Below are positions 5,656 to 64,000 of a stretch of 64,000 nucleotides of DNA, piece after piece (the stretch's first letter is position 1; each line of letters begins with the position of its first letter). Below the pieces are notes generated by a model. It was given only the letters and a program-made list of their open reading frames with translations, was not told the DNA's origin and did not search any database. The stretch comes from Candidatus Aminicenantes bacterium. GTDB lineage: Bacteria; Acidobacteriota; Aminicenantia; Aminicenantales; UBA4085. The translations under genes were made by a program, and so were the position numbers. The DNA lies in NCBI GenBank assembly GCA_030691735.1, contig JAUYDS010000118.1:21536-85535 (forward strand). The letters are read 5' to 3'.

Positions 5656-5669
5656 AGCGCCGTCCGCGG

Positions 5670-5835
5670 TCAAGGGACGAGCCTTCGCGGCGGAAGTACT
5701 CACCCATGTCTTATATTTACGGGTGAGTACGGCGGAAACGGATCCCCAGACGAAGTCTGGGGCCCCTGCCGCCGTGGACCCCCGGGCAAAGCCCGGGGCC
5801 CCGGGCTTTCCCTTGGCGGCCGACGGATCGCTCGG
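5670..5835 (-). repeat. Mosaic palindromic repeat element family A, copy 1 (reverse orientation), intergenic
   Basis: Contains the same modules as copies at 18305, 18636, 29501, 30124 and 49703: the GTCAAGGGACGAGCCTTCG end, a CCCCGGGC-AAA-GCCCGGGG hairpin, and a GTACTCACCC...GGGTGAGTAC hairpin. Confidence 0.85.
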
Positions 5836-14757: not shown

Positions 14758-15699
14758 GTGGCCTACAAGAAACGACCTCTGTCCCCGGACGGACTGACGA
14801 CCTATCCTCTCCGGTCCCGCTCAAGCAAGGTCCGCGTCGCGGATTTCGCCAAGGTCTCGCGACCGGGCGATTCCGTCGCCCGTTTCGTCCGAAGTCTTCC
14901 GCGTTTTCTCGCGGCCCAGGAACTCCGGGAGCTGACGGCCGCGATGACGAACGCCCGCCGCGGCCGGAAGGTTTTGATCTGGGCCATGGGCGCTCACGTC
15001 ATCAAGGTCGGGCTCAGTCCCGTTCTCATCGATTTGATGAAGAACGGCTGGATCTCCGCCGTGGCGCTCAACGGCGCCGGCATCATCCACGATTTCGAAT
15101 TGGCCTACGCCGGAGCGACCTCCGAGGACGTGGAAAGCCAGGTCAAGGCGGGCCGCTTCGGCATGGCCCGGGAGACGGGGGAACGGTTGAACGGCGCGAT
15201 CCGCCGCGGCGCCGAAGACGGCCTGGGGCTGGGCGAATCCGTGGGCCGGATGATCGCGGGGTCCGATTTTCCGTTCAAGAAATGGAGCCTCTTGGGGACC
15301 GCCTATCGCCTGGGCGTTCCGGTTACGGTCCATGTCGCTATCGGGACGGACGTCATCCACATGCATCCCAGCGTCAGCGGCGAAGCGCTCGGAGCGACTT
15401 CTTTAAAGGATTTTTTCCTCCTGGCCGCGCTCGTCCGGGGGCTGAACGGCGGGGGCGTGTTCCTCAACATCGGATCGGCGGTCGTTCTGCCCGAGGTCTT
15501 TCTCAAAGCGGTGTCGCTTGTCCGGAATCAAGGCCGGACGCTCGACGGCTTCACGACGGCCGTCTTCGATTTTCACCATCACTATCGGCCCGCCCAGAAC
15601 GTGACCCGCCGGCCCCTGGGGAAGAAGGGGAAAGGGTATTATTTCGTCGGCCACCATGAGATCATGATCCCGCTGCTCGCCGCCGCTCTGGGGACCTGA
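14758..15699 (+). CDS. Deoxyhypusine synthase-like family protein (hypothetical)
   Basis: LIDLMKNGWISAVALNGAGIIHD resembles the IRYLV..N.VDVLVTTAGGVEED segment of DHS-like proteins; weak, by recall only. Confidence 0.35.
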   Translation: MAYKKRPLSPDGLTTYPLRSRSSKVRVADFAKVSRPGDSVARFVRSLPRFLAAQELRELTAAMTNARRGRKVLIWAMGAHVIKVGLSPVLIDLMKNGWISAVALNGAGIIHDFELAYAGATSEDVESQVKAGRFGMARETGERLNGAIRRGAEDGLGLGESVGRMIAGSDFPFKKWSLLGTAYRLGVPVTVHVAIGTDVIHMHPSVSGEALGATSLKDFFLLAALVRGLNGGGVFLNIGSAVVLPEVFLKAVSLVRNQGRTLDGFTTAVFDFHHHYRPAQNVTRRPLGKKGKGYYFVGHHEIMIPLLAAALGT

Positions 15700-15714: not shown

Positions 15715-16341
15715 TTATCCAGCGGATCCGCTTTTGATCCGGCCGGCGAGGAGCAATTCCTCGTAAAGCTCTTCCGCTTGCTCGATGGTCTCTTCCATCG
15801 ATCCGGACGTATCCACGACGTAGTCGGCGTATTCCAGCTTTTCCTCGGCCGGCATCTGAGTCCGGATCCTACGGCAGGCCTCTTCGCAACCGATCGCGTC
15901 GCGGTCCATCAGGCGTCGGACCTGGACCTCCTCCGGGCAGTAAACGACGACGACCTCGTCGAAGAATTCGGCGAATCCGGCCTCGATGGTCAGGGCCGCT
16001 TCGGAGACGTAGATCTTGACTCGGCCCTCTTGATCGAGCCGGGCGATGGTCTTCCTCTTCTTCTTCATAACCAGAGGATGGATGAGGGCGTCGATAAAAC
16101 GCCTCGCGTCCGCGTCCCCGAAGATGATCGCGCCGAGCTTCTTGCGGTCAATCGACCGGTCGGATTTGAGGAGGTCCTGGCCGAAGCGGGCGACGATCTT
16201 TGTCCAGGCCGGACGGCCCGGGGCCATGATCTCGCGAGCGACTTCGTCGGATTTGTCGATATGGCATCCGCGCCGGCGGAGAACGTCCCCGACGATGGAT
16301 TTTCCGGAAGCGATGCCCCCCGTCAGGGCAACGGTCAACAT
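15715..16341 (-). CDS. coaE: Dephospho-CoA kinase
   Basis: P-loop GGIASGKS at N-terminus; ~200 aa. Confidence 0.88.
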   Translation of the reverse strand: MLTVALTGGIASGKSIVGDVLRRRGCHIDKSDEVAREIMAPGRPAWTKIVARFGQDLLKSDRSIDRKKLGAIIFGDADARRFIDALIHPLVMKKKRKTIARLDQEGRVKIYVSEAALTIEAGFAEFFDEVVVVYCPEEVQVRRLMDRDAIGCEEACRRIRTQMPAEEKLEYADYVVDTSGSMEETIEQAEELYEELLLAGRIKSGSAG

Positions 16342-16357: not shown

Positions 16358-16717
16358 CTATTTCTTAGAGCCGCGGATGAACTTGAACTCTTTGTCGAAG
16401 CGGACGGCCACGCCCTGTTTCTTGTTCTTCTTGTTCGGTTTTTCCAGACGGACGGTCATCCCCCCGATCTGCAGCTTGAGACCCTGGCTCTCGGTGAGTT
16501 CCTTGGGCAGCTCGATGATGATGTTGAGCTTGGAGCCGACCACGACGCCCGAGTCCAGGCAGAGATAGGCGCCGGTCGAGCTGATGTTCTCGAGCTTCGC
16601 CACTTCCTTGAAATTCTTGCCCTGAGGCAGCGTGCCCTCGACGATGGCCGTCAGAGGCAGTTCGAAGCGCCATTCCCGGCGGCGATTAATGTCGACGGGC
16701 ACGCGGATCTTTTTCAC
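16358..16717 (-). CDS. PilZ domain protein (canonical c-di-GMP binding motifs)
   Basis: RRREWR (RxxxR) and NISSTG (D/NxSxxG) motifs. Confidence 0.75.
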   Translation of the reverse strand: MKKIRVPVDINRRREWRFELPLTAIVEGTLPQGKNFKEVAKLENISSTGAYLCLDSGVVVGSKLNIIIELPKELTESQGLKLQIGGMTVRLEKPNKKNKKQGVAVRFDKEFKFIRGSKK

Positions 16718-16788
16718 GAGCGTCCGGCCCTTGGGGGTTTTTTTGCGGCTGATGTGTTCATGGCGTTTCCACCCTTGTCCTTTCGATC

Positions 16789-17481
16789 TTAGAAGAGGGC
16801 CGAGTTGATGGCGTAGAGCGCCAGCTGGAGCCGGCTGTGCGTGTCGAGCTTGGCGTAGATGCTCTTGATGTGCGAGCGGACCGTGTTCTTGCTGATGAAG
16901 AGGATCTCGGCGATGTCGTCGTTGCTCTTGCCCTGGCCGATGAGCTTGAGGACCTGGAACTCGGTCGGCGTGAGCTGGTCGAGGGTCTTCTCCTTCATGT
17001 CGCGTCCGACGACCGAGATAATCCGGTCCATGATGCTGCTCATCTTGTCTCGCGGCAGCCAGATCTCGCCGCGGTGGATGACCCGGACGGCCTCCGGGAG
17101 CTGTCCCGAGGGGTCGTTCAAGTCGAAATAGCCTCGCGCCCCGACGTTGATGAGGCTGACGATCTCCTCGTGCGAGGGGATGTTCCCGATGAGGAGCATC
17201 TGCGATTTGAGCTGGTCCTTGGAGATCTCGCGGATCGCCTTGCAGATCTCGCGCATGTTGGGGAGCGTTTCGGTGCTGGCGAACAGGATGACGTGGGGTC
17301 GGAGCTTGCGGATCGAGTCCATGAAGGACTCGATGGTGTTCTTTTCGATGGTCACGACCTCGATCTGCGGGTCGATTTCAAGGGCCTTCAGGATCCCGGA
17401 CAGGATCAGGTCCGACGGGCAAAAGATGAGGACCTTGACCGTCGTCGCGTCCGAAGAAGACGGGAGTTTCTTTTTATTCAT
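16789..17481 (-). CDS. LuxR/NarL-family transcriptional regulator with atypical (Asp-less) receiver domain
   Basis: C-terminal HTH (LTPTEFQVLKLIGQGKSNDDIAEILFISKNTVRSHIKSIY); the receiver-like N-domain lacks the DD pair (LIFCPSD) and the phospho-acceptor Asp (ILFAST instead of LLDL). Confidence 0.7.
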   Translation of the reverse strand: MNKKKLPSSSDATTVKVLIFCPSDLILSGILKALEIDPQIEVVTIEKNTIESFMDSIRKLRPHVILFASTETLPNMREICKAIREISKDQLKSQMLLIGNIPSHEEIVSLINVGARGYFDLNDPSGQLPEAVRVIHRGEIWLPRDKMSSIMDRIISVVGRDMKEKTLDQLTPTEFQVLKLIGQGKSNDDIAEILFISKNTVRSHIKSIYAKLDTHSRLQLALYAINSALF

Positions 17482-17588
17482 GTGTTTTTGTGTCCCTTAG
17501 GCAATTTCGGTCCTGGCATTTCTCTCTGATTGGATGGAATTCTAATAAAACGAATCCGGGATGTCAACCCGCGGATGGGCGCGGCCTC

Positions 17589-17969
17589 TTACGGCTGGAC
17601 CTGGAAATTCCTGTCGAGCTTCACCGAAACGAGCTGGCTCCGGCTTTTGATCGAAACGTCCGATTTGACGAACGCGACTGTCCCGGAAAGACAAAGGTCG
17701 AACCGCTTTTCGAGAAAAAAGGTCTGCGGGACCCTGAGGCAAAGCAGGAGCTTGGTCCCGATCATCACCTTGGATTGAAGGCAGAGAACGGCCTCTTGGG
17801 CGCTGAGCGACGAGACTTCCGTCTGTTCCGAAAATTCCCGTTCGGCGGCGTCGAAGCCTTTGACCAGCGCGGGAAGAGAGAGCTCGAAGGACCGCTCCCT
17901 CTTCCGCGTTTCGGAAAAACCTTGAATGGAAGAGGTGCCGTTTATGTTCATATCCATGAGAGTGATCAA
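17589..17969 (-). CDS. PilZ domain protein (partially degenerate motifs)
   Basis: RKRER (RxxxR) present; second motif EVSSLS deviates from D/NxSxxG. Confidence 0.65.
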   Translation of the reverse strand: MITLMDMNINGTSSIQGFSETRKRERSFELSLPALVKGFDAAEREFSEQTEVSSLSAQEAVLCLQSKVMIGTKLLLCLRVPQTFFLEKRFDLCLSGTVAFVKSDVSIKSRSQLVSVKLDRNFQVQP

Positions 17970-18466
17970 GCCTCGGGTCGGATGATGTATTTGCTGTCGA
18001 ACTTGATCGTGACCTTCTGGCGGATGAGACGGTCGCGGTCGGCTTCGACTTGGGTCACTTTGCCTTTGATGACCATTTTCAGGGACTTGTCCTGGGCGAG
18101 CTTCTCCGGCAGGTCGATGATCAGTTTCAACCGCATGCCGATATTGATCGGATTCTTGAGGTAAAACGTCGATCCCTCGTGACTGATGTAGGTCAGGACC
18201 GTGTCCTCGGCGAATTCTTTTCCCTGGGCGTTCAAGCCCTCGACTTGGGTCGGCAGGGGAAAGGTGAATCCCTGATCCCGACCTGCCGGGGTGTGCGGAC
18301 CTTCGACGGCGGCCGGGGCGGCGGCAGGGGCCCCAGGCTTTGTCTGGGGATCCGTTTCCGCCGTACTCAGCCGCGTATTTACATCGCGGGTGAGTGCCCC
18401 GGGCTTTGCCCGGGGTTCCACTTCCGCCGCGAAGGCTCGTCCCTTGACATATGGCTCTTTTGTCAT
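17966..18466 (-). CDS. PilZ domain protein carrying an in-frame family A repeat insertion in its N-terminal region
   Basis: C-terminal PilZ fold (MRLKLIIDLPE...KGKVTQVE...VTIKFD); N-terminal residues 10-55 (RAFAAEVEPRAKPGALTRDVNTRLSTAETDPQTKPGAPAAAPAAV) are encoded by repeat element 18305..18448; RxxxR motif absent. Confidence 0.6.
   Translation of the reverse strand: MTKEPYVKGRAFAAEVEPRAKPGALTRDVNTRLSTAETDPQTKPGAPAAAPAAVEGPHTPAGRDQGFTFPLPTQVEGLNAQGKEFAEDTVLTYISHEGSTFYLKNPINIGMRLKLIIDLPEKLAQDKSLKMVIKGKVTQVEADRDRLIRQKVTIKFDSKYIIRPEA
18305..18448 (+). repeat. Mosaic palindromic repeat element family A, copy 2 (inside the PilZ gene 17966..18466)
   Basis: Shares the CCCCGGGCTTTGCCCGGGG hairpin, the GTACTCAGCCGCG...CGCGGGTGAGTG hairpin and the GAAGGCTCGTCCCTTGAC end with the other copies. 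Confidence 0.85.
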
Positions 18467-18635
18467 GATCGCTTCCTTATTCCGAATTCCTTTTCCTTGG
18501 CCTCGCCGTCAGCTTAAATCGGCCTCCAAGAGGGGTCAATCACCCCTAAAGATGAAAAAAGGGGTGATATTTCCCTTGGGGATTGTCACCTCCCGCATTG
18601 ACGATGAAGCAAGCTTCGTTTAACATGGAGGCCAC

Positions 18636-18774
18636 AGCGGCCGGGGCCCCGGGCTTTGCAGTCCTCATTCGCGAAGCGAATGAGGGCGGGCTTTGCTCGG
18701 GGGTCCACTTCCGCCGTACTCGCCCGTGAATATAAGCCACGGGCGAGTGGCGAGCCGAAGGCTCGTCCCTTGAC
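18636..18774 (+). repeat. Mosaic palindromic repeat element family A, copy 3 (intergenic)
   Basis: Modules: GGCCGGGGCCCCGGGCTTTG, the CCTCATTCGC-GAA-GCGAATGAGG hairpin, the GTACTCGCCCGTG...CACGGGCGAGTGG hairpin, and the GAAGGCTCGTCCCTTGAC end. Confidence 0.85.
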
Positions 18775-29500: not shown

Positions 29501-29568
29501 TCCACGGCGGCCGGGGCCCCGGGCTTTGCCCGGGGGTCCACTTCCGCCGCGAAGGCTCGTCCCTTGAC
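29501..29568 (+). repeat. Mosaic palindromic repeat element family A, copy 4 (minimal form, intergenic)
   Basis: TCCACGGCGGCCGGGGCCCCGGGCTTTGCCCGGGGGTCCACTTCCGCCGCGAAGGCTCGTCCCTTGAC: the two ends plus the core hairpin only. Confidence 0.85.
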
Positions 29569-30123: not shown

Positions 30124-30303
30124 ACGGCGGCCGGGGCGGCGGCAGGGGCCCCAGGCTTTGCAGTCCTCATTTGCGAAGCGAATGAGGGCAGGCTTTGTCT
30201 GGGGATCCGTTTCCGCCGTACTCAGCCGCGTATTTACATCGCGGGTGAGTGCCCCGGGCTTTGCCCGGGGGTCCACTTCCGCCGCGAAGGCTCGTCCCTT
30301 GAC
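30124..30303 (+). repeat. Mosaic palindromic repeat element family A, copy 5 (longest form, intergenic)
   Basis: Contains all modules (the CCTCATTTGCGAAGCGAATGAGG hairpin, the GTACTCAGCCGCG hairpin, the core CCCGGG hairpin and both ends). Confidence 0.85.
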
Positions 30304-48232: not shown

Positions 48233-49977
48233 ACATGTTTTGCTCGGGGAGGAATGTTATTGAGTTCGCGAACGGTGGACGGGCCGACCTCCGGTTCTAT
48301 TTTGACGGCCGATCGGGCCGGCCGGAAATCGTTGCCGCTGAGGACGATGTCGTTCGTCCGCCGACCCGAGAACCGGAAGAACTCATCTGTTCCCAGAGCG
48401 GCCCGGCAGTTCCGGACCAGAGCCCCTTCGACCTGATGGAAAAGCACCGCCGGCGCGGTCTTGGCTTTTTCTGTCGCGGCCTGGCGCCCCACAAACCCGT
48501 CCAATTCGAGGCCCTGGACCTCATCCAGGCACAGAGCGCTTTCCCACTTCGCGTATTCCAGGCCGTCCCAGACGATCTCGACGTTCCTCAGCTTGAGGTT
48601 CCGGGCCCATTTGAACGTCAGGGCGTGAACGGCCTTATCGTAAGGCGCGGCTGGGTCGTGGGCGATGAACAGCGTCACGTTGTCCATCGTGATCCCCTCC
48701 AGCCAGCTGTCGGGATGCCCGTTGCAGACGCTGGCGCCCTGGCCGCGGGCGATGACGTTGGTGATCTTCACGTTCCGGATCCGCCCGGCCGGCCGGTCGT
48801 CCTCTTTTTTCCAATTCTTGTGCACCTCGCTCCGTTTCTTGATGTTGAAATGGAACGGCTCGCCGTCGCCCCACCAGAACCAGGCATAGCGGACGCAGTC
48901 GATGGTCAGATTGGACAGGACGACGTTCTCCACCACGCCGCCGTCGAAGTTCATGAAGGAGATGCCGCGATTGGCCTTGGTGATCACGCAGTTGTCGATG
49001 GTGACGTTCCGGACCGCGTTCATGTTGCCGTCGCAGAACTTGATGGCGCTCGAGGCGGAGGAGAGGCGGCAGTTGGTCACGGTGATGTTCTCGCAGGGGA
49101 GGGCCGGGCCGAACCAGTTCATGGAATAAAAGACGAGCGCGTCGTCGCCGGTTTCGATGGTGCAGTTCGAGATGCGGAGGTCCCTGCAGCCGTCAGGATC
49201 GATGCCGTCGGCCCAGACGCCGTCCTTGAGGCTGGAGCGGATGAATACGCCGTCGATGACCGTCCGTTCACAGCCGTAGAGATGCATGGTCCAAGACGGG
49301 GAATCGATGAAATTCAGGCCGCTGATGCGGACGTCCCGGCAGCGCAGCAAAAGAACGAGCTTCCCGAACTGGTCCTCCTTGGGGAAGCTGCGGACGAGCG
49401 GTTTGCCGAGCTTTTCCATCTCGACCTGGTTCGGGTAAATGAAGTCGTCGTGAAAATCTCCCTTCGGCCGGTAAACATAGCCGCCCTGGCCGTCGATGGT
49501 GCCCCGGCCTTCCAGGCTGATCTGGGTCAGGTCTTCGCCGTAGAACAGGGCGTCCTTGTCGAACGCCGCTTTGTTTTTGATCGAATAGATCGTCGCCCCC
49601 GCTTCGACGAAGAAACGGACATGGCTGCGGAGATGGATCGTCCCCGTCGCATATTGCCCCGGCGGAACATAGACCTGGCCGCCGCCCGCCGCGGCGCAAG
49701 CGTCCACGGCGGCCGGGGCCCCGGGCTTTGCCCGGGGGTCCACTTCCGCCGTACTCGCCCGTGGATACAAGCCACGGGCGAGTGGCGAGCCGAAGGCTCG
49801 TCCCTTGACCGCCTTTTGGATCGCCGCTTGAGCGCTCCCGGCCTTCGTTCCCGTCGCCCCGAAGTCCCGGATGTTGAAGATTTTTTGGCCCGACTGGCCG
49901 GCGAGGGCGGAAGGAATGAAAACGATCCCTCCCCAAACGATGATCCCGATCATTCTTCTGGCGAGCACGGTTCTCAT
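48220..49977 (-). CDS. Glycoside hydrolase family 28 (polygalacturonase-like) secreted enzyme carrying an in-frame family A repeat insertion
   Basis: GH28 parallel beta-helix motifs (NFIDSPSWTMHL, DGIDPDGCRDLRISNC, TGDDALVF); signal peptide; 34 extra residues (VKGRAFGSPLARGLYPRASTAEVDPRAKPGAPAA) between the conserved AIQKA and VDACAAAGGG. Confidence 0.8.
   Translation of the reverse strand: MRTVLARRMIGIIVWGGIVFIPSALAGQSGQKIFNIRDFGATGTKAGSAQAAIQKAVKGRAFGSPLARGLYPRASTAEVDPRAKPGAPAAVDACAAAGGGQVYVPPGQYATGTIHLRSHVRFFVEAGATIYSIKNKAAFDKDALFYGEDLTQISLEGRGTIDGQGGYVYRPKGDFHDDFIYPNQVEMEKLGKPLVRSFPKEDQFGKLVLLLRCRDVRISGLNFIDSPSWTMHLYGCERTVIDGVFIRSSLKDGVWADGIDPDGCRDLRISNCTIETGDDALVFYSMNWFGPALPCENITVTNCRLSSASSAIKFCDGNMNAVRNVTIDNCVITKANRGISFMNFDGGVVENVVLSNLTIDCVRYAWFWWGDGEPFHFNIKKRSEVHKNWKKEDDRPAGRIRNVKITNVIARGQGASVCNGHPDSWLEGITMDNVTLFIAHDPAAPYDKAVHALTFKWARNLKLRNVEIVWDGLEYAKWESALCLDEVQGLELDGFVGRQAATEKAKTAPAVLFHQVEGALVRNCRAALGTDEFFRFSGRRTNDIVLSGNDFRPARSAVKIEPEVGPSTVRELNNIPPRAKHVHRP
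49703..49809 (+). repeat. Mosaic palindromic repeat element family A, copy 6 (inside the GH28 gene)
   Basis: TCCACGGCGGCCGGGGCCCCGGGCTTTGCCCGGGGGTCCACTTCCGCC-GTACTCGCCCGTG...CACGGGCGAGTGG-...GAAGGCTCGTCCCTTGAC. Confidence 0.85.
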
Positions 49978-61858: not shown

Positions 61859-62274
61859 CACTCTCAACACTTTATAAATAAGTAAGTTACGAGGGCCTCC
61901 GAATAGGTCCGTCCCCCTCTTTCGGTTCATGGTCAATGGAGCCAAAATACCATAAAATACGCAAGTTTCAACCCTCAACACAAAAGGTGAGACGAAAGGT
62001 CGTTTTCCCTCGCCCCCGCAAAAAAGCGGAAAGAAAATGGAGTGTCTTTTTTCGCCATAGATTCGGCCAATGAATCTATTCGACGTTGGACATCGCCGGC
62101 CACGTCAAATTTTGTTCGCATTTTCGGGGCCATCGTTCCTTCTTCAATTGGCTGCCTGTAACATGACGAGATCGTAAGCTCGAGCCATTGAGCGATGAAC
62201 CTTTATCTCTTCTTTATTATGGGCTTTACGCCAATGCCCACCGGGGAAAGGTGCGGAAAGCGGGCGTCTCCCCC

Positions 62275-62310
62275 TTGACTCATTACGGCCACAAAGAAGT
62301 ATAATGACCA
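62275..62310 (+). promoter_or_regulatory. Near-consensus sigma70 promoter (TTGACT...TATAAT) in the AT-rich islet
   Basis: TTGACT 62275-62280, TATAAT 62300-62305 (18-19 nt spacer). Confidence 0.4.
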
Positions 62311-62398
62311 TCCAGCGTCGCTTCGCTCCGATCAGTGGCCGTTTTGAACCGGAATCACTGGCCGGATTGACCGGAATATACAAGAAGGGGAGGTTATA

Positions 62399-62560
62399 AT
62401 GGGAGTCCTTCACAACGGGAAAGAAAAGTTAGAAAATCTTATAAGAAAAACTAGAATTCAAAGGAACGAGCAGAAAAAGAGGACACAAAGAAAGAGCGAA
62501 AAAAATAAGCTTATATTGCAGCTTACGATTCCTTCCCGTCGGGGAAGAAGAAAAAAATGA
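62399..62560 (+). CDS. Hypothetical small highly basic protein (53 aa, Lys/Arg-rich, rare codons)
   Basis: RBS AAGGGGAGG 6 nt upstream of ATG; below the 60-aa cut-off of the ORF track; AGA/AGG/ATA/TTA codons atypical for the rest of the window. Confidence 0.3.
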   Translation: MGVLHNGKEKLENLIRKTRIQRNEQKKRTQRKSEKNKLILQLTIPSRRGRRKK

Positions 62561-62615
62561 TTACAGTCAATAATCTTGATTGAAAAAAACAATTTAAGCT
62601 TTAAAGGAGTTAACA

Positions 62616-62852
62616 GTGAAAGAACTCGTTGAAATGATTGTCAAATCATTAGTGGACAAGCCAGACCAAGTGAAGGTTTCCCAATTAGACGGCCAACAGA
62701 GCTCAATCATCGAATTAAATGTTGCTCCGGAAGATGTAGGTAAGGTTATTGGGAAGCAGGGAAGAAACGTTCAGGCCATCAGAGTTATTTTGGGTGCTGC
62801 AGGAATGAAGCTGAAAAAGAGAATTAATCTCGAGATTATAGAAAAAAGATAA
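62616..62852 (+). CDS. KH-domain RNA-binding protein KhpA-like
   Basis: MKELVEMIVKSLVDKPDQVKVSQ......IELNVAPEDVGKVIGKQGRNVQAIRVIL matches the KhpA/UPF0109 KH fold (GKQG = GxxG loop); RBS AAAGGAG. Confidence 0.7.
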   Translation: MKELVEMIVKSLVDKPDQVKVSQLDGQQSSIIELNVAPEDVGKVIGKQGRNVQAIRVILGAAGMKLKKRINLEIIEKR

Positions 62853-63537
62853 CTTGGTCAGGATGGGAAAATGATTGTCTGTTGGCGTTGATTGTCGTTT
62901 GGCATAAGGGGAAAAAAGAGGAATCACCAAAAAAAGAAGCAAATCAATGACAAAAGAAAAAGAGAAAAGAGACAGAGAAAAAAAAGAAAAGGCGAAAAGA
63001 AAAAGAGAAAAAAGCGGGAAAGAGAAAAATAGAACTTCAAAGGATAAGAATTTCGTTTTCCGCTACACTGGCTGAATAAGCATTCATCCGCCGGTTTTAC
63101 CTCGTCCCATCCTCAGGGATGATAAATCGTGACAAGATGGGATTTCAAATCGAGTTTAAAATAGCGGAAGGCGGGCCAAGGAACCGCGGGCAAGCTCAAG
63201 AACGCCGGACTCCCTGCTGCCTACGTCGAAACGGAACTTCAGCCAGTTAAACAATATCTCCTTCCGTTCGTTGGGGCCTACGAGATCGCCACGTCGCTTC
63301 GCTCCTCGCGATGACAGGCTCTATCGGCAATTTTGGGCTCCGTCAGAAGACTTGCTCCCGCCGCAGATTGTCATTAAACTTAAGTTCTAATCTTCATAGA
63401 AAACATGGACAGCAAGAGAATGGGGACTTCTAGGAAAATCCTGGCAGCTTATCTCGTCCTGCCGCTTATAGGGTCACCACTCCAGAATTACCGTAACACC
63501 GATATTTTTATTTAGATGGAAGCCTAAAGGGGGAGGG

Positions 63538-64000
63538 ATGGGATTAGGAGCAATGATTAAGAAGGGGAAGGGTAATCTTCTCCAAAAAACGGCCCTGGCC
63601 GCATATAAGCTGGCGGTTGTGTTTGCCGCGCTAATTGTCACTCCGGCGGCCGGCCGGGCGGAACCGTGTCCCGGCCCCCAAGCTGCCGCGGAACACATCC
63701 CAGGCCTTTCCGTCCGGCTGACTTCTCCCAACGGCGGCGAAGTCTGGAAAGCCGGAGAAAAGCGGACGATTACCTGGCTTGTTTCTGAAGGGGCTGACAT
63801 CACAGGCATCACCATCCTCTACTCCACGGATTCCGGATCCACGACGGAGCTTGTAAAGAGCCTTCAGGAGAATCCTGCTTCCTTTACCTGGAACGTCCCG
63901 CATCTCGCGTCAACGGGCTGCCTTGTGTTGATCGAAGTGTCCGACTTGAAGGGCAACCGCGCCCGGGATCAAAGTGACTCAACCTTCACCATCACGAAGC
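63538..64000 (+). CDS. Hypothetical secreted protein (N-terminal part; continues past window end)
   Basis: Open frame from ATG 63538 to the window end; signal peptide (LAVVFAALIVTPAAGRA); repeated ...SP.GGE.W..G....I.W... / Y.W.VP pattern of a small beta-sandwich domain. Confidence 0.5.
   Translation, partial: MGLGAMIKKGKGNLLQKTALAAYKLAVVFAALIVTPAAGRAEPCPGPQAAAEHIPGLSVRLTSPNGGEVWKAGEKRTITWLVSEGADITGITILYSTDSGSTTELVKSLQENPASFTWNVPHLASTGCLVLIEVSDLKGNRARDQSDSTFTITK

Follow-up and report, generated by a model that had tools for sequence, protein, structure and literature searches.

How can a transcriptional regulator be switched when its receiver domain has lost all five active-site residues, and why should three PilZ proteins be encoded around it? 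The questions are raised by a gene cluster at positions 16358-18466 of a stretch of 64,000 nucleotides (nt) from a Candidatus Aminicenantes bacterium (contig JAUYDS010000118.1 of assembly GCA_030691735.1), the whole of which is called the window below. The cluster holds three genes for stand-alone PilZ proteins, named here PilZ_A, PilZ_B and PilZ_C, and one for a NarL/LuxR-type regulator. Our tentative answer is that it could be a lineage-specific output module of Aminicenantes for c-di-GMP (cyclic dimeric guanosine monophosphate), in which PilZ_C would sense c-di-GMP and act on the regulator by contact, the regulator would control PilZ_A and PilZ_B, and these two would serve as adaptors or decoys. 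We hold this to be a real possibility that still falls short of being probable.

A conserved cluster of PilZ genes and a regulator

All genes of the cluster lie on the minus strand. PilZ_A (17966-18466, 166 amino acids (aa)) comes first and is followed by PilZ_B (17589-17957, 122 aa), the regulator (16789-17481, 230 aa), PilZ_C (16358-16717, 119 aa, GTG start) and coaE (15715-16341), which encodes dephospho-CoA kinase (Pfam CoaE, E 7e-47) and starts 16 nt after PilZ_C. A first-pass annotation of the window had listed the same four open reading frames upstream of coaE, and all the motifs that it quoted are present: RRREWR and NISSTG in PilZ_C, RKRER and EVSSLS in PilZ_B, no RxxxR in PilZ_A, and LIFCPSD and ILFAST in the regulator. 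The reading frame of PilZ_B was listed as 17589-17969 with a TTG start at 17969; translation probably begins instead at ATG 17957, which gives the same protein as the NCBI call. That product is identical to a protein of an NCBI metagenome-assembled genome (P0121), annotated there as 'hypothetical protein', and the gene calls of the region were the same on an independent assembly.

By its homologs the window belongs to the uncultured Candidatus Aminicenantes of the Acidobacteriota. The cluster was compared in 80 loci from species-level Aminicenantes genomes, 78 of which were assessable for synteny. The first-pass annotation had named a lack of conservation as something that could overturn its proposal; the order PilZ_A, PilZ_B, regulator, PilZ_C, coaE is retained in 77 of the 78 assessable genomes. 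All four genes stand in order in 75 of the 80 loci and all four are also found in L009 and L076, where PilZ_C is cut by the contig end, while L035 and L045 are cut upstream. In L009 (4053-5858) an NTP-transferase/aminotransferase gene lies between PilZ_B and the regulator; in the window this gene precedes the cluster on its upstream side and is oriented divergently.

The median gap is about 50 nt between the regulator and PilZ_C (71 nt in the window), 4 nt between PilZ_C and coaE (75 loci) and 157 nt between PilZ_B and the regulator. Upstream of the regulator lies a sigma-70-type promoter (17567-17539, minus strand; TTGACA, 17 nt, TAGAAT) with an 11/12 match to the consensus; when 79 upstream regions were aligned, TTGACA was conserved in at least 90 % of them, and so was TAnnAT. 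Because of the tight spacing, and because neither a promoter nor a minus-strand terminator was predicted between the regulator and PilZ_C, the regulator, PilZ_C and coaE are taken as one unit. The likely transcription units are thus PilZ_A-PilZ_B and regulator-PilZ_C-coaE, the latter transcribed from the regulator's own strong and conserved promoter. No significant match to an Rfam RNA, riboswitch or other, was obtained in the intergenic regions.

The receiver domain and the PilZ proteins

The regulator consists of a pseudo-receiver (residues ~15-136), an invariant WLPR segment (141-144), a long helix (144-162) and a GerE/LuxR-type helix-turn-helix (HTH) domain (168-224). In Pfam the last of these is matched by GerE (PF00196, 71.6 bits, residues 168-224), and there is no match to Response_reg. 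Residues 14-229 align over the full length to NarL, MctR, LiaR/VraR and DosR in HMMER alignments and models. The AlphaFold2 (AF2) model (predicted local distance difference test (pLDDT) 72) has five beta-alpha units, the long helix 144-162 and a four-helix HTH, and its Foldseek matches include LiaR/VraR, RcsB, DesR and NarL. The isolated receiver domain superimposes on the receiver (REC) domain of DesR with a template modelling (TM) score of 0.82-0.84 and a root mean square deviation of 2.5.

When the active-site positions were placed by alignment to LiaR/VraR, NarL and DosR, the two acidic-pocket aspartates were found to be replaced by C21 and P22, the acceptor aspartate (D57) by A68, the threonine (T87) by G99 and the lysine (K109) by L121. 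Among 81 orthologs C21 occurs in 81 and P22 in 80, position 68 is Ala in 77, Thr in three and Ser in one, and none of the 81 has Asp at this acceptor position. The claim of the first-pass annotation that the receiver lacks both the acidic pocket and the phospho-acceptor is thereby borne out, and the loss of the active site extends to every ortholog, so that neither of the two findings which could have overturned its proposal of PilZ-mediated control was made. In the nomenclature of PMC12632262 the regulator, as judged from these alignments, counts among the atypical response regulators, and its receiver is a pseudo-receiver of the aspartate-less kind. Since the phosphorylation chemistry of the receiver has been lost altogether, it would not be switchable by a kinase.

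Of the three PilZ proteins only PilZ_C passes the threshold of Pfam PilZ (PF07238; 26.6 bits, cut-off 22.5), and its database orthologs are annotated as PF07238 or PilZ domain-containing protein. Neither PilZ_A nor PilZ_B has a family match in Pfam or NCBIfam; Pfam PilZ is matched by five of 19 PilZ_A orthologs, and no Pfam match was obtained for 19 orthologs of PilZ_B. The three are nevertheless mutual paralogs in BLASTP (E 2e-16, 9e-18 and 5e-16, the second being PilZ_A against PilZ_C), and in hhalign the ortholog profiles of PilZ_A and PilZ_B match that of PilZ_C with probabilities of 99.6 % (E 8e-24) and 99.4 % (E 5.6e-21), respectively. As none of the three profiles had a sequence-level match to solved PilZ chains, a structure model was needed. 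The AF2 model of PilZ_B (pLDDT 84) shows a barrel of six long strands preceded by 16 disordered N-terminal residues, and its top Foldseek matches in the PDB are PilZ domains, namely those of MotI/DgrA, 4xrn (a PilZ domain from Pseudomonas aeruginosa, with c-di-GMP), Alg44, BcsA, MrkH, YcgR, PlzD and PA0012 (8u0i).

The binding motifs were counted in orthologs from the 80 genomes (79 for PilZ_A and PilZ_C, 78 for PilZ_B). PilZ_C has RRxxxR in 79/79 and NxSxxG in 79/79. In PilZ_B the RxxxR pattern occurs in 29/78 and [DN]xSxxG in 0/78, with a conserved Glu in place of Gly. In PilZ_A the RxxxR pattern, found in 33/79, is shifted by one residue, and [DN]xSxxG occurs in 1/79; a segment [YF][IM]SHxG is retained, with Tyr or Phe in place of Asp or Asn and SxxG kept in 64/79. 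In the profile alignments the residues opposite R13 and R17 of PilZ_C are K and S in PilZ_B and G and G in PilZ_A. The three genes had at first been described as running from canonical to degenerate, and this stands insofar as PilZ_C is canonical and the other two are degenerate, but the RKRER of PilZ_B, taken as an intermediate, lies one residue off the register of R13/R17 and is not conserved, most orthologs having G-K-R-E-R. On these motifs PilZ_C is the only canonical PilZ protein of the three and is predicted to bind c-di-GMP, and PilZ_A and PilZ_B are classed as non-canonical proteins of PilZ fold that have lost the binding motifs.

The degenerate paralogs are not genes in decay, since their ratios of nonsynonymous to synonymous substitution rates (dN/dS; 0.06-0.32 for PilZ_A and 0.07-0.52 for PilZ_B) are similar to that of CoaE (0.14-0.45). 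All genes of the cluster are under purifying selection. It is strongest in the regulator, with a dN/dS of 0.02-0.12 and an identity of 77-96 % across 80 species (median 80 %), compared to 45-79 % (median 54 %) for CoaE; residues 139-230 are nearly invariant. Such strong constraint fits a protein with several partners. A search of 1.8 billion representatives with the regulator returned one full-length cluster at 75 % identity and then ordinary NarL-family proteins at about 35 % or less, with none in between.

How the regulator may be controlled

If the cluster works as a c-di-GMP output module, the regulator would be an orphan member of the NarL/LuxR family, independent of kinases through the loss of its receiver phosphorylation chemistry. 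PilZ_C, either in its c-di-GMP-bound or its free form, would bind the regulator and alter its dimerisation or DNA binding. This contact is modelled on two pairs from P. aeruginosa: TssZ (PA0012), a single-domain PilZ adaptor found by a yeast two-hybrid screen to bind the LuxR/LasR-type transcription factor HinK (PMC10912698), and HapZ, a PilZ adaptor which binds the receiver domain of SagS (bioRxiv 10.1101/2020.02.11.943704). PilZ_A and PilZ_B would be c-di-GMP-blind paralogs made from a separate promoter with a weak -10 and, directly at its -35, an invariant TCACCCC-heptamer element; this element would be the operator through which the regulator controls them, and both proteins, as decoys or adaptors, may in turn engage the partner surface that PilZ_C uses, closing a loop.

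The candidate operator lies at the PilZ_A promoter (18511-18568, minus strand). In the window it consists of ATCACCCC (18568-18561), TTCATC (18556-18551) and AGGGGTGAT (18547-18539), the last fused to the -35 TTGACC (18539-18534), with the weak -10 TAAGCT at 18516-18511. The general arrangement, ATC(A/C)CCC, TTCA(T/C)C and (A/G)GGGTGAT fused to the TTGACC -35, is visible in 76 loci, and 75/75 PilZ_A upstream regions contain the 10-mer GGTGATTGAC. Some genomes have three clean heptamers, as in L012 with ATCACCC N5 ATCACCC N3 GGGGTGAT. Except for a hairpin beside the core of a dispersed repeat, the window has no second copy of the inverted pair. We also considered the palindrome as an RNA hairpin and rejected it: in one clade the left arm ATCACCCC has become ATCCCCC without compensation in the invariant right arm, so that the element is a site in DNA. 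NarL-family proteins bind paired heptamers, and the arrangement at the PilZ_A promoter is reminiscent of this. The simplest reading is that the LuxR-type regulator binds the TCACCCC heptamers. Of 78 loci, 23 have the same heptamer within 60 nt upstream of the -35 of the regulator, and 15 of these have two copies or more, compared to a background of 0.4 % of 60-nt windows; the loci concerned are related to each other and belong to one clade.

Several observations are in favour of the module: the synteny in 77/78 genomes, the tight linkage of regulator, PilZ_C and coaE, the invariant motifs of PilZ_C, the PilZ folds of PilZ_A and PilZ_B, which have lost the motifs yet are constrained, the lost active site of the regulator, and its strong constraint. 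No histidine kinase gene was found among the neighbours of the cluster. The conservation of the heptamer element in all loci, the precedents for PilZ partners and the low probability of direct sensing, discussed below, were counted on the same side.

Other points weigh against it. The proposed physical contact between a PilZ protein and the regulator is read from synteny and probable co-transcription, and mere co-regulation would lead one to expect such synteny just as much. Among ten longer relatives of the regulator no fusion of PilZ with REC-HTH was found, the extra domains being only duplicated REC/GerE, PAS or kinase domains. In L008 PilZ_A and the regulator are only ~290 nt apart (L008:3011-3302), PilZ_B having been lost. 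The regulator promoter of the window genome has no heptamers, and the element at the PilZ_A promoter could be bound by another factor or be an extended -35. No GG[DE]EF protein was found in the 64-kb window or in the flanks of the 80 loci (~0.9 Mb in all), which is uninformative as only one syntenic region was sampled, and no EAL genes were seen there either; the presence of c-di-GMP in the organism is for this reason read only from the invariant motifs of PilZ_C.

The rival that survives best is co-regulation without contact, in which the regulator would control the transcription of the PilZ genes, perhaps via the heptamers, the PilZ proteins would act on other targets such as motility, secretion or polysaccharide machinery, like the majority of single-domain PilZ adaptors, and the regulator would have another input or be constitutive. 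Such a plain regulator-target relation fits the operator-like element at the PilZ_A promoter and, for one clade, the heptamers found before the regulator, and the cluster would then simply be a regulator with its regulon. Pseudo-receiver regulators are often active unmodified (PMC12632262), QstR, which carries the same WLPR segment, dimerises without a cofactor (PMC6237807), and the lack of a PilZ-REC-HTH fusion among the ten long relatives agrees with this as well. However, PilZ_C lies downstream of the regulator in what appears to be the same transcript, without a regulated promoter of its own. Moreover, no flagellar, pilus or glycosyltransferase genes, which would be plausible PilZ targets, are linked to the cluster, the neighbours of which are housekeeping genes. 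We find this explanation somewhat doubtful, though it deserves to be taken seriously.

It is also conceivable that the pseudo-receiver is controlled through cysteines or a small ligand, in the manner of the redox-switched RitR and Hp1021, and that the PilZ genes lie beside it as members of a common regulon. In addition to C21, found in every ortholog of the locus, C80 in helix 3 is invariant, as is C21, in a 52-sequence alignment, and both redox control by cysteine and ligand binding are documented for pseudo-receivers (PMC12632262). The retention of three PilZ paralogs beside the regulator in 77/78 genomes is left unexplained, and we regard this route as unlikely.

The regulator could, finally, sense c-di-GMP itself as VpsT does, using W141 and R144, with which the helix following the receiver begins. 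In an alignment to the VpsT structure 3kln, its GEIWLPRD is in register with DEMWLTRK, so that WLPR stands opposite W131-L-T-R134 of VpsT; the segment is present in 120/120 database homologs and is directly followed by helix 144-162, like helix 6 in VpsT, in the AF2 model (moderate confidence; means of 84, 70 and 57 for 10-residue blocks). In VpsT-type sensors an extra helix at this place forms the nucleotide-dependent dimer interface. The c-di-GMP motif of VpsT has been defined as W[F/L/M][T/S]R (PMC7288161). In the regulator the third position is Pro, and opposite K120 of VpsT stands a Glu (E130) that hardly varies. Neither protein has Lys at the K109 position. QstR functions at low c-di-GMP and becomes c-di-GMP-dependent only upon the substitution P129T, which restores WLTR, and BrpT, also with WLPR, was likewise reported to be c-di-GMP-independent (PMC6237807), although one review gives it as a weak binder with a dissociation constant of 135 µM (PMC10519070). 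Furthermore, VpsT ranks only 28th among the structural matches of the regulator, behind LiaR, RcsB and NarL. With the c-di-GMP-independent variant of the segment, Glu at the K120 position and VpsT not the nearest fold, VpsT-like direct sensing was downgraded and appears very improbable. The low likelihood of direct sensing leaves room for a c-di-GMP input in trans.

Such an input is what the output module with PilZ_C as sensor would supply. We are more reserved about its most explicit form, in which PilZ_C, loaded with c-di-GMP or free of it, would substitute for the histidine kinase by docking on the aspartate-less receiver and switching its dimerisation, and PilZ_A and PilZ_B, under control of the regulator via the TCACCCC operator, would compete for the same surface, giving a feedback loop. 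Such a partner switch at the protein level would provide a pseudo-receiver with a definite means of being turned on and off; in all its parts this seems rather unlikely.

Related systems and the surroundings of the cluster

The arrangement had initially been put forward as potentially novel, but contacts between a PilZ protein and a LuxR-type factor (TssZ-HinK) and between a PilZ protein and a receiver (HapZ-SagS) are known, and the cluster is a variant of this PilZ-adaptor logic and not a new category. With TssZ-HinK it shares a stand-alone canonical PilZ protein and an HTH of LuxR type in the transcription factor, and c-di-GMP would reach transcription by protein contact; the structure of PA0012 (8u0i) is, as mentioned, among the fold matches of PilZ_B. 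Here, in contrast, the partnership is suggested by gene linkage, with synteny extending over a lineage of class rank. The receiver of the regulator is moreover an aspartate-less one, and the canonical PilZ protein is joined by two degenerate paralogs. HapZ is likewise a single-domain PilZ protein with a receiver-fold domain as partner. SagS, however, belongs to the hybrid histidine kinases, its receiver is functional, and its phosphotransfer is modulated by HapZ. The regulator offers no phosphotransfer on which a PilZ protein could act, and its output would be the DNA-binding domain of the same polypeptide.

VpsT, QstR, BrpT and CsgD, LuxR-type regulators whose receiver domains work independently of phosphorylation (PMC6237807, PMC7288161), resemble the regulator in combining a receiver with GerE and in the GE(I/M)WLxR segment leading into a long helix, and QstR and BrpT have the identical WLPR variant. 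VpsT and QstR retain a dispensable acceptor Asp, unlike the regulator, which is also nearer to LiaR/VraR and NarL than to VpsT in sequence and fold and scores 58 bits with the NCBIfam CsgD model, the cut-off of which is 250. Many of the search matches to the regulator at 35 % identity or less (P0165-P0290) have a degenerate receiver active site together with an E-x-W-[ILV]-x-R segment, which in a few of them reads WLSR, exactly the motif of VpsT. Atypical regulators resembling VpsT and QstR may thus form a broad group outside Vibrio that has received little study.

Non-canonical PilZ proteins are common (bioRxiv 10.1101/2020.02.11.943704). PilZ_A and PilZ_B are comparable to the Xanthomonas proteins PilZ XAC1133 and XCC6012, which have the PilZ fold, have lost both binding motifs and have a presumed adaptor role (bioRxiv 10.1101/2020.02.11.943704; PMC3131395). 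The resemblance is one of fold and does not extend to the sequence, and PilZ_A and PilZ_B differ in being recent paralogs of a canonical PilZ protein in the same cluster.

The switching of bacterial pseudo-receivers has been described as largely unknown (PMC12632262). The cluster provides a compact test case, conserved in many species, with an unphosphorylatable regulator and an apparently intact c-di-GMP receptor in one probable operon, two paralogs that are "binding-dead" by nature and a candidate target on DNA, and all four proteins are small and testable in a heterologous host. If the proposed contact is true, it would add a path from c-di-GMP to transcription, define an input for an aspartate-less receiver and open a first way into the regulation of Aminicenantes, which are represented here by metagenome-assembled genomes only.

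The housekeeping genes around the cluster are those for a SPOR protein, HU, Lnt, the NTP-transferase/aminotransferase fusion and ProRS. Convergent with coaE, on the plus strand (14758-15699), lies a gene for a conserved 313-aa protein with 61-93 % identity among the loci and no Pfam match at E ≤ 0.001.

The window also contains a dispersed repeat of ~140 nt, resembling repetitive extragenic palindromes or miniature inverted-repeat transposable elements (REP/MITE-like), at 5669-5687, 18306-18448, 18634-18774, 29521-29568, 30256-30303 and 49723-49809. Its 19-mer core CGAAGGCTCGTCCCTTGAC has six exact copies in the window compared to 0.09 expected, and a 29-mer beside the core is present five times. 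One copy has been inserted in frame into PilZ_A after codon 7, where it forms residues 8-53 (18308-18445) and lengthens the disordered N-terminal tail by 46-47 residues; in the alignment the closest relative (L001) uses the same start codon and is without the insertion. At the far end of the window, positions 62001-64000 have a G+C content of 0.47, compared to 0.57-0.64 elsewhere.

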